Positions 18,331-62,394 of a stretch of DNA of 64,000 bases are shown piece by piece. Location of the stretch: contig JBHHUC010000005.1 of the NCBI GenBank assembly GCA_046861395.1, forward strand, positions 1-64,000. Reading direction: 5' to 3'. The stretch is from Fidelibacterota bacterium (GTDB taxonomy: Bacteria; Fidelibacterota; Marinisomatia; Marinisomatales; JABMOV01). The notes beneath the pieces were generated by a model. That model saw nothing but the letters and a program-made list of their open reading frames with translations, was not told where the DNA came from and searched no databases. Made by a program: the position numbers and the translations under genes. Within the stretch, counting starts at the first letter, position 1. The number at the start of each line of letters is the position of its first letter.

Positions 18331-18582
18331 CTAATCAACCATTTCTTCTTCAGCCTGCTTACCGTAAATATTGAACAGGTTTTCCAGAACATGGGTGGAT
18401 GTCATAATGGATTCCCGGTTTTTATTCCGGATTTTATTATAAACTTCTTCCCGATATATGGGAATTTCACGGGGAGCCTGAATCCCCAGCTTAATCTGGT
18501 CGGCCTCATTGGATAACACGGTAATGACAATATGTTGTCCAACCTGAATTTTTTCTCCTTTTTTGCGTGTCAGCACTAACAT
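18331..18582 (-). CDS. csrA: Carbon storage regulator CsrA
   Basis: MLVLTRKKGEKIQVG..IKLGIQAPREIPIYREEVY with C-terminal extension; adjacent to fliW. Confidence 0.97.
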   Translation of the reverse strand: MLVLTRKKGEKIQVGQHIVITVLSNEADQIKLGIQAPREIPIYREEVYNKIRNKNRESIMTSTHVLENLFNIYGKQAEEEMVD

Positions 18583-18605
18583 GTTCCCTCCATGGATAAT
18601 TCGGT

Positions 18606-19064
18606 CTATTTCCTGTTTAAGGCATAATTCATGGGCAGCGCCTGCTGGTCAAGAATGATCTGTCGGCCCGACTTACTGCTCTCATCCACCACAATCGGGG
18701 CCCGCAGATTCGCCGTGAATCCCTTTGTCCCCCGGTTGTACTGCAATACCGAATACACACAGACCGAGGTATTTGACATGAGCGTCGGATTGCTTTTCTG
18801 CAACGCTTCACTCAATTGGTCGGCAATATCCGGTGGAAGAATTTTCTTATGCTCGATCATGAGAAAAGCAACTGTGGGATCGTGGTGGGCGTGTAGAATC
18901 TTGAATGGTGTAAAACCGGCAACATCACGGACGATGAATTTTGTCAGTGATTCGAATCCCGGCAGGCCGTAGGAAAACGTGTACACGTCACCCGCTTTCT
19001 GATCGTCCTCTGCCAAAATTGAAGCTCCTGAATCCCCGCTGAATTCCTGGTTTAATAATTCCAT
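18606..19064 (-). CDS. fliW: Flagellar assembly factor FliW
   Basis: FSYGLPGFE and TANLRAPIVV..GRQIIL; lies between flgL and csrA. Confidence 0.93.
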   Translation of the reverse strand: MELLNQEFSGDSGASILAEDDQKAGDVYTFSYGLPGFESLTKFIVRDVAGFTPFKILHAHHDPTVAFLMIEHKKILPPDIADQLSEALQKSNPTLMSNTSVCVYSVLQYNRGTKGFTANLRAPIVVDESSKSGRQIILDQQALPMNYALNRK

Positions 19065-56829: not shown

Positions 56830-57021
56830 TCATTGTTTTTGTTCCCAATCATCCGTTTTTTCGCCGGGCTGAAACAGATTTAACAACGCCTGACGATAAA
56901 ACCTCCATTGACCGCCGATCTTTACAGCAGGGATTTTGCCTTCATGAATCAACTTGTACATGGTTCGTTCCTTGATGCCAAGGAAAACGCAGGCTTCTTT
57001 TATGTTTAATATTTGATTCAT
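56830..57021 (-). CDS. Excisionase-like HTH_17 DNA-binding protein
   Basis: LNIKEACVFLGIKERTMYKLIHEGKIPAVKIGGQWRF; start 57021 or 57060 (the latter sits at the predicted sigma28 +1). Confidence 0.9.
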   Translation of the reverse strand: MNQILNIKEACVFLGIKERTMYKLIHEGKIPAVKIGGQWRFYRQALLNLFQPGEKTDDWEQKQ

Positions 57022-57067
57022 CTGTTTTCTGCCTCGGTCCTTTCGCCGTAATCCGGTCATACTCTTA

Positions 57068-57094
57068 CCATCGGTGAAAACGGGTAAATCTTTA
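57068..57094 (-). promoter_or_regulatory. sigma28 promoter of HTH-motA-motB
   Basis: Minus strand TAAA-N15-ACCGATGG. Confidence 0.78.
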
Positions 57095-60118: not shown

Positions 60119-60943
60119 TTAGAATAAGGACAGAACGACTTGCGGCGAAGAATTCGCCTGAACCAGAGAGGCTACCGCAGTCTGCTGTAATATCTGTAGC
60201 TTCATCACCTCCATCTGTTCTTTCGCGAAGTCAGCATCCTCAATCACGCTACGCGCCGACTCCGTATTCGTAATGGCCACCGCCAGGTTTGATTCCTTGG
60301 CCGAGAGGCGGGATTTGAATTCTCCCACATCCTGGACACGACCGGCCAGGGTGTCAATTGCCGTGCTAAGGGTGCTGATGGCGGCACTGGCACTGGCAGC
60401 CGATGATACATTCACACTGTCGATACTGAGATCAGCTGAATCAGCACCATTCAAGGTAACCGACAATTCATCCGTTGCACCTTCGCCAGTATGGAATGCT
60501 TTACTAGAATAGGATCCATCAATGAGCGCGGTTCCGTTAAAGGATGTTTCAGTTACGATCGCGTCTATTTCCGAAATCAGAGCGCTGACCTGGTCGTTGA
60601 TGGCTGAACGCTGGGTGCTGGACAAAGACACATCCGAGGCCTGGGTGGCCTTTTCCTTCATGGTCTGCAATAGATCCATGATGGTTTGATAACCACCTTC
60701 CGCAATGTTCAATACATTCTTGGCCGTACCGACATTTGCCAGGGCCACTTCCAGTCCACGACGACGACGTTCCAAACCGCGTGCGATCTGGTAGCCGGCT
60801 GGGTCCTCTTCCGTGGAGTTGATTCGTTTACCGGTTGCAAGACGTAATTGTCGCATTGCAATCTTGCCATTAATATCCGAGAGTGAACTCAGAGACTGCA
60901 TCGCCGGAACATTGGCGCCGATTTTTGTTAAGTCACTAGCCAT
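60119..60943 (-). CDS. fliC: Flagellin 1 (274 aa, D0/D1 only)
   Basis: RLATGKRINS..DPAG, NIAEGG, SFNG, IEDADFAKEQ..ILQQ..QAN..PQVVLSL; AAGGAG 5 nt before ATG 60943. Confidence 0.96.
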   Translation of the reverse strand: MASDLTKIGANVPAMQSLSSLSDINGKIAMRQLRLATGKRINSTEEDPAGYQIARGLERRRRGLEVALANVGTAKNVLNIAEGGYQTIMDLLQTMKEKATQASDVSLSSTQRSAINDQVSALISEIDAIVTETSFNGTALIDGSYSSKAFHTGEGATDELSVTLNGADSADLSIDSVNVSSAASASAAISTLSTAIDTLAGRVQDVGEFKSRLSAKESNLAVAITNTESARSVIEDADFAKEQMEVMKLQILQQTAVASLVQANSSPQVVLSLF

Positions 60944-61045
60944 GTGAACTCCTTTTGTTATTGTTAACTTCCTTGTTATCAGACGGCAGTTTTTTATTGA
61001 CATGGGAACCGTCTGCCTTCCGGCATGTCAATCGTTGTTGGTTTC
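60944..61045 (-). promoter_or_regulatory. Structured 5' leader of flagellin 1 (pseudoknot and CsrA-like sites)
   Basis: 9-bp stem 61032-61024/61004-60996; loop CAGACGG complementary to CCGUCUG at 60986-60980; hairpin UAAC-AAGGAA-GUUA; GGA in the RBS. Confidence 0.62.
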
Positions 61046-61052
61046 AGTGTTA

Positions 61053-61079
61053 TTATCGGAGGATTGACGGGGCCCTTTA
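61053..61079 (-). promoter_or_regulatory. sigma28 promoter of flagellin 1
   Basis: Minus strand TAAA-N15-TCCGATAA, near consensus. Confidence 0.9.
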
Positions 61080-61211: not shown

Positions 61212-61406
61212 TTAGTGTTTCAACTCATTCAGTTTTTCCGTCAGAATTTCATCGAACATGCGATCAATATGTTCCTGTTTCATTTTCCATTGACCTCCGA
61301 GTTTTAACGCAGGGATTGTACCATTCTGGACCAGGCGATAAATCGTTTGTTCCTTGATCTTCAGATACTGCGCTGCCTCTTTTATTCCCATGATGTCATT
61401 TGCCAT
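61212..61406 (-). CDS. Excisionase-like HTH_17 DNA-binding protein
   Basis: MGIKEAAQYLKIKEQTIYRLVQNGTIPALKLGGQWKM; AAAGGA RBS. Confidence 0.9.
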   Translation of the reverse strand: MANDIMGIKEAAQYLKIKEQTIYRLVQNGTIPALKLGGQWKMKQEHIDRMFDEILTEKLNELKH

Positions 61407-61451: not shown

Positions 61452-62279
61452 TTAACCGAAGAGAGAAAGAACAACCTGCGGGGATGCATTAGCCTGTGCC
61501 AAGGAGGCGACGGCTGTCTGTTGCAGGATCTGCAACTTCATGACTTCCATCTGCTCTTTTGCAAAGTCGGCATCTTCCACCAGGCTGCGAGCTTCCTCGG
61601 TATTGGTGATCGCAACCGCCAGGGTCTGCTCCTTGGCAGTCAGACGGGATTTAAATTCTCCCACATCCTGCAAACGACTGGCCAGGGTGTCGATTGCCGT
61701 GCCCAGGGTGCCAATGGCGGCACTGGCACTGGCGGCCGTTGATAGGCTTACCGTGCTGATTGTAAGATCGGCTGAATCCGCACCGTTCAAGGTAACTGAC
61801 AATTCATTTGACGCCCCTTCGCCAGTATGGAATTTCTTGGCTGAATATGAACCATCAATGAGTGCAACACCGTTAAAGGATGTTTCGGTAACAATGGCAT
61901 CAATTTCCGAAATCAGAGCACCGACTTGATCGTTAATAGCTGAACGCTGGGTGCTGGACAAAGATACATCCGCAGCCTGAGTGGCTTTTTCTTTCATGGT
62001 CTGTAACAGATCCATGATGGTTTGATAGCCGCCTTCGGCAATGTTCAATACATTCTTGGCCGTACCGACATTTGCCAATGCAACTTCCAGCCCGCGACGA
62101 CGACTTTCCAATCCGCGAGCAATTTGATAACCGGCCGGATCTTCTTCCGTAGAATTGATCTTTTTTCCGGTTGCCAGGCGTAACTGGTGCATGCCAATTT
62201 TCCGGTTGATTGAGGATAATGAGCCTAAGGATTGTAAGGCTTCTATATTGGCACCGATTCGTGTTAAATCACTTCCCAT
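61452..62279 (-). CDS. fliC: Flagellin 2 (275 aa, D0/D1 only)
   Basis: Close paralogue of flagellin 1; GGAGG 5 nt before ATG 62279. Confidence 0.96.
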   Translation of the reverse strand: MGSDLTRIGANIEALQSLGSLSSINRKIGMHQLRLATGKKINSTEEDPAGYQIARGLESRRRGLEVALANVGTAKNVLNIAEGGYQTIMDLLQTMKEKATQAADVSLSSTQRSAINDQVGALISEIDAIVTETSFNGVALIDGSYSAKKFHTGEGASNELSVTLNGADSADLTISTVSLSTAASASAAIGTLGTAIDTLASRLQDVGEFKSRLTAKEQTLAVAITNTEEARSLVEDADFAKEQMEVMKLQILQQTAVASLAQANASPQVVLSLFG

Positions 62280-62360
62280 AGTGACCTCCATGTTGTTTTT
62301 TATGACTTCCTTGTCTTCGGGCGCTGTGAAGCTCCCGACAGTCGGCGATTTCCATCACCT
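62280..62360 (-). promoter_or_regulatory. Flagellin 2 leader with CsrA-type GGA hairpins
   Basis: GGUGAU-GGAA-AUCGCC, GAC-AAGGAA-GUC and AUGGAGG overlapping the RBS. Confidence 0.68.
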
Positions 62361-62367
62361 GCTAACA

Positions 62368-62394
62368 ACATCGGAGAAAATTCAGGAAACTTTA
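62368..62394 (-). promoter_or_regulatory. sigma28 promoter of flagellin 2
   Basis: Minus strand TAAA-N15-TCCGATGT. Confidence 0.85.

Follow-up and report, generated by a model that had tools for sequence, protein, structure and literature searches.

A covarying pseudoknot in front of a predicted CsrA-type operator in flagellin leaders of Marinisomatota

The stretch of DNA analysed here (the window, 64,000 nucleotides) belongs to a metagenome-assembled genome (MAG) of Marinisomatota that is 94% complete, and it carries two flagellin genes on the minus strand, in the company of two genes for HTH_17 proteins. Relatives of flagellin 1 are found in MAGs of Candidatus Neomarinimicrobiota (Marinisomatota) and of Calditrichota. 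The parts of the locus that surround the leader of flagellin 1 are these:

61452-62291, minus strand, flagellin 2, upstream of flagellin 1
61212-61406, minus strand, HTH_17 gene of 64 aa, upstream of flagellin 1
61189-61163, minus strand, terminator-like hairpin upstream of the flagellin 1 leader
61053..61079, minus strand, sigma-28-type promoter of flagellin 1, TAAAG-N15-CCGATAA, a pattern match
60119..60943, minus strand, flagellin 1 coding sequence, 274 aa, with the Pfam domains Flagellin_N and Flagellin_C
56830-57060, minus strand, HTH_17 gene of 76 aa, on the downstream side of flagellin 1

Downstream of flagellin 1 follow fliS, fliD, an ORF of 137 aa, the gene of a FlgM-like protein and then the HTH_17 gene at 56830-57060. 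From the promoter box, the transcript of flagellin 1 is predicted to start near position 61046, which would give it a leader of about 100 nt, matching the interval marked in the sequence-only reading (60944..61045). Sigma-28 boxes of like build stand before flagellin 2 (62370-62394) and before the gene of the 76-aa HTH_17 protein, where TAAAG-N15-CCGAT (57070-57094, minus strand) lies immediately 5' of the gene. Over the whole window the sigma-28 pattern has six matches against 2.55 ± 1.53 expected, and the orthologous flagellin leaders have the same box in front. No terminator separates flagellin 2 from the HTH_17 gene at 61212-61406 that follows it.

All elements of the flagellin 1 leader lie on the minus strand, i.e., in mRNA sense, and its 5' half is occupied by two helices that cross each other:

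61018..61032, minus strand, 5' strand of the first helix (S1), made of AUUGACAUG (61032-61024), a CC bulge and GGAA (61021-61018), from the minimum free energy (MFE) structure
61016..61017, minus strand, L1 (GG), from the sequence and the output of the pseudoknot scan
61009..61015, minus strand, 5' strand of the second helix (S2), CAGACGG, part of the S1 loop, immediately before the S1 3' strand
60996..61008, minus strand, 3' strand of S1, made of UUCC (61008-61005) and CAUGUCAAU (61004-60996)
60987..60995, minus strand, L3 linker AAAAAACUG, A-rich
60980..60986, minus strand, 3' strand of S2 (the tail), CCGUCUG, the full complement of the loop bases CAGACGG

The core of S1 joins AUUGACAUG to CAUGUCAAU, two strands of 9 nt that are 100% complementary at a spacing of 19 nt, and the MFE structure consists of this hairpin, lengthened by GGAA/UUCC over the CC bulge, with a loop of 9 nt (GGCAGACGG, 61017-61009). 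The loop of the first helix contains the 5' strand of the second, whose 3' strand follows downstream; this is the topology of an H-type pseudoknot, and by rule of thumb the crossing would be feasible, with 2-3 nt of L1 spanning 7-8 bp and 8-9 nt of L3 spanning 12-13 bp. The helices that had been named in a sequence-only reading of the locus (the 9-bp S1, its GGAA/UUCC extension and CCGUCUG paired with seven loop bases) are all there as complementary strands, as is the alternative hairpin UGCC-GGAA-GGCA that it had pointed out (61025-61014, minus strand). The pseudoknot takes up over half of the leader. Taken alone, the sequence has a nested MFE without significance (z of -1.15; 26 of 200 shuffles fold equally well); S1 and S2 combined score -28.3 against -3.2 ± 5.7 for dinucleotide shuffles, a value reached by 0 of 200. 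S1 also contains an upstream ORF of 10 codons (AUG 61026-61024 to UAA 60996-60994; 60994-61026 of the window, minus strand), and an in-frame AUG at 61003 would add 20 residues to the flagellin. Neither the 10-codon ORF nor the AUG at 61003 has a Shine-Dalgarno (SD) sequence and, by eye, neither occurs in the relatives.

The 3' half of the leader leads from the pseudoknot to the start codon, and the genes for the proteins that might act on it are found elsewhere in the window:

60965..60978, minus strand, GGA-loop hairpin UAAC(AAGGAA)GUUA, predicted upstream CsrA site, covarying in relatives
60949..60954, minus strand, Shine-Dalgarno AAGGAG with a second GGA; relatives keep ACAAGGAGG / ACACGGAGG
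60943-60941, minus strand, AUG of flagellin 1, from the sequence
18621..18980, minus strand, fliW, extent of the family match (PF02623, 75.2 bits)
18427..18582, minus strand, csrA, extent of the family match (PF02599, 85.3 bits)

Flagellin is made in very large amounts and at an exact time, and textbooks explain this timing by the Hag-FliW-CsrA partner switch, the RNA side of which has been described as two GGA sites. In the window leader, the GGA hairpin begins one base past the tail of the pseudoknot, and its GGA lies 20 nt from that of the SD sequence. By this spacing, the two GGAs resemble the two-site CsrA operators of Bacillus hag and Campylobacter flaA. The genes csrA and fliW are adjacent (18427-18980) and next to flgL, and their presence in the window, with a GGA in a hairpin loop and a GGA in the SD sequence at bridging distance, places the leader at sequence level in the hag/flaA type, to which a pseudoknot module is added. 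By its sequence features, the 3' half thus fits a predicted hag/flaA-type CsrA operator. That a GGA hairpin and the ribosome binding site (RBS) follow the pseudoknot (60978-60965 and 60954-60949) had been part of the sequence-only reading, and so had control by CsrA. The latter stands insofar as hairpin and RBS fit an operator and the window encodes CsrA and FliW; it does not extend to a switch that gates the access of CsrA.

The two model systems allow the leader to be compared feature by feature. As far as the summary of the Bacillus subtilis work on hag and its Hag-FliW-CsrA partner switch goes (Yakhnin 2007, Mukherjee 2011, as summarised in PMC7652899), the window shares with it a late flagellin gene, two CsrA-type sites (predicted here), one of which overlies the SD sequence, a GGA-loop hairpin upstream of the SD sequence, and the presence of csrA and fliW in the genome. 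It differs by the covarying H-type pseudoknot right 5' of the upstream site and by the phylum, Marinisomatota. With flaA of Campylobacter jejuni, as excerpted from Dugar 2016 (PMC4894983), it has in common a flagellin of the sigma-28 class, two ANGGA sites of which one is at the RBS, and a structure backed by compensatory changes; the sites are 21 nt apart in flaA, where 18 nt is the stated optimum, and 20 nt apart in the window leader. In the same excerpt the flaA untranslated region is 45 nt long with just two stem-loops, whereas the window leader measures about 100 nt, over half of it pseudoknot (PMC4894983).

The leader is hard to follow at the level of DNA. A BLAST search with the leader DNA among 41 relatives returned chance-level matches only, the best outside its own genome having an E-value of 0.003 over 20 nt; since the leader was without a homologue by DNA search, its relatives were collected via the flagellin protein. 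Leader homology at such depth is visible in structure only. The genomes of the 41 relatives, 67 loci of public genomes and 63 metagenome loci supplied 111 distinct leaders, of which 90 had a GGA-loop hairpin and enough sequence upstream; removal of leaders at least 90% identical reduced them to 81. The scan required of these leaders a helix of 5 bp or more with its end no further than 9 nt upstream of the GGA hairpin, its 5' strand enclosed by a hairpin, and a gap of at most 8 nt between the two. The scan was limited to 72 nt; an unrestricted version ran into promoter DNA and gave spurious calls. In this shuffle test, which is independent of any alignment, 25 of the 81 non-redundant leaders beat their dinucleotide shuffles at p<=0.05 (about 4 expected by chance), and 19 of the 25, the window's leader included, did so at the floor of 0.005. 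One passing leader, L105 from Anammoxibacter (p=0.01), has a doubtful, U-rich helix and was dropped before the geometry was measured, which was done on 24 leaders, and before the complementarity tests described below. Outside the 25 stand L052_2512, L050_570, L045_1501, L106_2918 and L051_1501, which look like members by eye and failed the automatic scan.

What such leaders have in common across Marinisomatota is a plan rather than letters: a hairpin, a helix between the 3' part of its loop and a tail that follows an A-rich linker, the GGA hairpin and the SD sequence with its GGA. The duplex of loop and tail is CAGACGG/CCGUCUG in the window and, in other leaders, for example GACGGGU/ACCCGUC, GGCGGUU/AACCGCU, GAGCAGC/GCUGCUC, UGGCGGA/UCCGCCA, GGUGGU/ACCACC, AGUGGA/UCCACU or UGACGG/CCGUCA. 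Within this plan, some distances are constant despite the looser limits of the scan: in the 24 leaders, L2 has 0-2 nt, and 0-6 nt separate the tail from the GGA hairpin. Other parts vary, i.e., L3 has 3-21 nt (61% A), L1 has 0 to 15 nt and S1 has 4 to 19 bp. Among the 437 predicted pairs, 38 are G-U (S1 has 32 among 288 pairs, S2 has 6 among 149), and the G-U pairs fit an RNA on the minus strand and not a DNA palindrome.

This last point bears on the idea that the conserved element is an operator at the level of DNA, read e.g., by the neighbouring HTH_17 protein. Such an operator would be in line with the inverted repeat, 9 bp without a mismatch at about +13 to +50, and with an HTH_17 gene close by (61212-61406). 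The pairing is conserved and the sequence of the repeat is not, however, and the 38 G-U pairs would not be pairs in DNA or on the opposite strand; moreover, a second helix that crosses the first one covaries. A DNA operator is for these reasons hardly to be expected here.

The scan was not passed by 56 of the 81 leaders, among them that of flagellin 2 of the window genome, and in leaders without the pseudoknot other 5' hairpins occupy the same place. That flagellin 2 lacks the structure, as the sequence-only reading had it, was borne out both by the scan and by the covariance model R2 (see below), which matched the flagellin 1 leader only; the leader of flagellin 2 has a multibranch fold instead. 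This fold (62280-62372, minus strand; MFE -30.4, z -3.0) is closed and includes two hairpins with GGA loops, GGUGAU(GGAA)AUCGCC and GAC(AAGGAA)GUC. In several genomes, the other flagellin paralogue has a smaller pseudoknot-like leader (L053, L052:613-726, L007:30-142, L115 and L174), in which the duplexes are unrelated (CGAUCA/UGAUCG, UGUGGUC/GACCACA) and end a few bases before the GGA hairpin. Leaders of Calditrichota (L063-L071, L080, L123, L124, L128) show a CGGAAA...UUUCCG hairpin that runs into GGGACGAAGGUC, and the scan finds no pseudoknot in them.

Alignment of leaders that differ so much in sequence is not straightforward. MAFFT alignments of 21 or 26 leaders left the tail in shifted registers, and RNAalifold (alignment A2) recovered the GGA hairpin alone. 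Because of these shifts, subfamily alignments and a two-round covariance model were used instead; alignment A9 (4 leaders) had register shifts as well and was left out of the counts. The covariance model comprised the loop-tail helix and the GGA hairpin, was refined once, and served to align 30 leaders. In the resulting alignment, which was fitted to the structure of S2, all 6 of the 6 S2 pairs show double-sided changes and 85.5% of the cells pair; one of these pairs is AU in 14 leaders, GC in 10, GU in 1 and UA in 1. For the whole structure in these 30 leaders, controls with slid partners pair in 20-46% of cells, and 0 of 500 shuffles reach any of five measures. The plain MAFFT alignment of 8 leaders, the window's among them, keeps S2 in register in all rows, with double-sided changes in 5 of 8 pairs and 85.9% pairing. 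In this alignment the whole structure pairs in 88.3% of cells, compared with 21-47% when the partner is slid. The slid controls of these alignments are partly beaten by construction, since the 30-leader alignment was fitted to S2 and the subfamily structures were derived from the same sequences. Support for S1 comes from two subfamily MAFFT alignments, one with 9+4 pairs, 4 of them double-sided (89.3% paired over the whole structure), and one with 6+6 pairs, 3 of them double-sided (89.2% over the whole structure). As the leaders are kin, none of the alignment and leader counts are independent. In the nearest leader, that of a flagellin with 85% identity, the S1 sequence is wholly different from that of the window. 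The S1 of the window is thus without a close relative, and covariation of its exact 13 pairs is therefore indirect, by position.

The predicted architecture of pseudoknot plus GGA hairpin is, by these comparisons, conserved and covarying in flagellin leaders across Marinisomatota. The pairing of loop and tail, on which the sequence-only reading had staked its pseudoknot, proved to be conserved and covarying in related flagellin leaders. Complementarity that arose by chance and has no function, or alternatively an RNA thermometer, would be in keeping with the single-sequence z of -1.15 and with the hydrothermal-vent metagenome from which the DNA derives. The sequencing runs listed as containing it are four DNA runs of one sample, its possible source, with no RNA run among them. 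Against both stand the recurrence of the structure with covariation in many leaders and the position of SD sequence and AUG outside the fold, which make either explanation very unlikely.

The specificity of the structure was assessed with the covariance model R2. In the window genome, the flagellin 1 leader is its sole match (E-value of 1.2e-7, the next best being 0.175). Across 151 genomes sampled evenly from the phylum, R2 gives 26 matches at E<=0.001, distributed over 21 genomes. Of these matches, 22 lie directly 5' of flagellin-type ORFs, and 17 of the 26 sit 15-23 nt before the flagellin start; in 3 the gene is cut by the end of the contig (2 were checked by translation), and 2 precede a mini-flagellin ORF of 100 aa. 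The 4 weakest matches (E >= 3e-4) are inside unrelated coding DNA. A Flagellin_N domain is encoded in 43 of the 151 genomes, 17 of which have a flagellin-adjacent match; the number becomes 18 of the 43 flagellin-bearing genomes when that of the window, missed by the stricter filters of the large search, is counted. The 100-aa mini-flagellin ORF (L179 and L180, bases 1501-1910) combines about 12 N-terminal and about 85 C-terminal residues of flagellin, and its leader contains the full pseudoknot and the GGA hairpin, the same leader as L110:2760-2839 and L094:3107-3186. The C-terminus of flagellin is the part that binds FliS and FliW.

The Rfam covariance models, which the sequence-only reading had proposed as a check, left the window leader unmatched at E<=10, and for 20 related loci searched at E<=1 all 9 listed matches are located elsewhere and below the gathering score. 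A flagellin-leader pseudoknot was likewise not found in the titles and abstract openings of the literature covered, which lies outside subscription journals. A covarying pseudoknot right before the GGA sites would point to an undescribed RNA component of flagellin control. Judged by sequence, the new part is a phylum-wide predicted pseudoknot module, added to the known CsrA-FliW type of flagellin leader.

An obvious question is whether this module acts as a sensor. A small pseudoknot of the H type with an A-rich linker is an architecture often met among riboswitches, and the preQ1-I riboswitch (RF00522) offers the closest formal parallel, having an H-type pseudoknot with an A-rich linker past the first helix; the word AUAAAAAACU, too, presumably recalls it. 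S1 has 12-13 bp here and about 5 bp in preQ1-I, however, and the tail stops short of the SD sequence. The resemblance, which had been voiced with doubt from the start, was rejected: Rfam reports no match for preQ1-I in the leader (E<=10) or in the 20 related loci (E<=1), no pocket bases are conserved, the downstream gene is a flagellin gene and not one for queuosine, and 22 of the 26 model matches are located 5' of flagellin-type ORFs.

The general marks of a riboswitch were sought in the family as a whole. Among the 30 aligned leaders, no unpaired column of the pseudoknot reaches 90% conservation; what is conserved at or above this level in the pseudoknot are paired G/C of S2 only, and L1, L3 and the S1 loops vary. 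The strands of the pseudoknot (S1 5', S2 5', S1 3', L3 and tail) are complementary to the SD/AUG region at p<=0.05 in 1 of 118 tests, and the same five segments are complementary to the GGA hairpin at p<=0.05 in, again, 1 of 118. No terminator was called on the mRNA strand between the pseudoknot and the start codon. The distance from the tail to the SD sequence is about 26 nt, with the CsrA-type hairpin in between, so that direct masking of the SD sequence is impossible. Neither conserved unpaired pocket bases nor an expression platform that pairs with SD sequence, start codon or terminator was thus found, and since these marks of a sensor were sought without success, a small-molecule riboswitch is unlikely.

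A broader proposal, put forward in the sequence-only reading, is that of a conformational switch, driven by a ligand, by temperature or by a protein, in which the pseudoknot would exchange with another fold, e.g., the UGCC-GGAA-GGCA hairpin, and so alter the access of CsrA or the stability of the mRNA for this one flagellin. The presence in the window of this hairpin with its GGAA loop speaks in favour of the proposal, as do the different leaders of the two flagellin paralogues and the frequency of such pseudoknots among riboswitches. Set against this is the variability in the family, where not one unpaired pseudoknot column is conserved to 90% and the lengths of L1 and S1 differ widely. Neither the SD/AUG region nor the GGA hairpin has a conserved partner among the pseudoknot strands, and GGA shows no enrichment in the region of the pseudoknot (34 against an expected 31.7 ± 3.9). 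The GGAA-exposing hairpin of the window was, by eye, absent from the 24 other tabulated leaders, no Rfam family matches, and the tail is about 26 nt from an SD sequence that it cannot mask directly. With no conserved unpaired bases, no conserved alternative pairing and no enrichment of GGA, the proposed switch did not hold up and is regarded as improbable.

If the pseudoknot is not a switch, it could be a static structural module, i.e., a 5' stabiliser or insulator placed before the CsrA-type operator. As a whole, this reading is preferred tentatively and is given somewhat less than an even chance. According to it, translation would be repressed by CsrA, bound to the GGA hairpin and the SD sequence, for as long as FliW is not free, in the manner of hag and flaA. 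In the meantime, RNase E/G could readily attack a leader that is rich in A and free of ribosomes. The pseudoknot would turn this 5' leader, single-stranded without it, into a compact structure, which may protect the message during its ribosome-free wait and may also keep upstream sequence off the CsrA hairpin. RNase E/G was found in the genome (contig 132, 8930-9733); the C-domain of RNase J and the N-domain of RNase Y were not found in this 94%-complete genome, and RNase E/G is the only one present of the three decay-initiating nucleases that were looked for. The other 5' hairpins in leaders without the pseudoknot fit a generic structural role, and the 56 of 81 leaders, that of flagellin 2 included, in which no pseudoknot was detected indicate that it is dispensable for CsrA-type control as such.

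Precedent for protection of this kind exists among the 5' stabiliser structures of bacterial mRNAs, of which the 5' hairpin of ompA, known to slow the attack of RNase E, is an example. Similar to the stabilisers of the ompA type, the flagellin 1 leader would place a stable fold close to the 5' end of a message that is very abundant, and RNase E/G was found in its genome. The ompA-type structures are simple hairpins at the extreme 5' end, in contrast to the pseudoknot of the window, which is predicted to start about 14 nt into the transcript.

The anatomy of the leader is what suggests a role as stabiliser or insulator, and the computed results would suit this role and the docking of a protein alike. 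In the latter case, the shape of the pseudoknot would be recognised by a specific partner (by CsrA through an additional contact, by ribosomal protein S1 or by a flagellar chaperone complex), which would tune translation or couple it to secretion. The tightly kept spacing of 0-6 nt to the GGA hairpin and the conservation of structure without conservation of sequence are what one would expect of such docking, but GGA is unenriched in the pseudoknot and the leaders without it retain their CsrA-type sites. Docking is considered rather unlikely. More speculative is the thought that the pseudoknot serves a second flagellin checkpoint as its recognition module beside the CsrA-type operator, its shape being read by a flagellar assembly protein or a small signal, and that with the CsrA-type hairpin it forms a cassette common to flagellin mRNAs of several phyla; the likelihood attached to it is low.

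The static module, should it be confirmed, is of interest beyond this locus, because a repressed message must survive, and it becomes a testable question whether 5' pseudoknots stabilise or organise mRNAs of this kind. If the pseudoknot is only a stabiliser, it would represent a useful new RNA family and no surprise. Near the predicted 5' end of the Marinisomatota leaders, about 12-20 nt past the -10 box, the word UUGAA or UUUGAA is common (L099, L089, L061, L110, L102, L049 and others). It occurs in leaders with and without the pseudoknot, at times as the outer strand of S1 and at times unpaired, and the window has at this place (61042-61046, minus strand) merely UGAAA instead of UUGAA.
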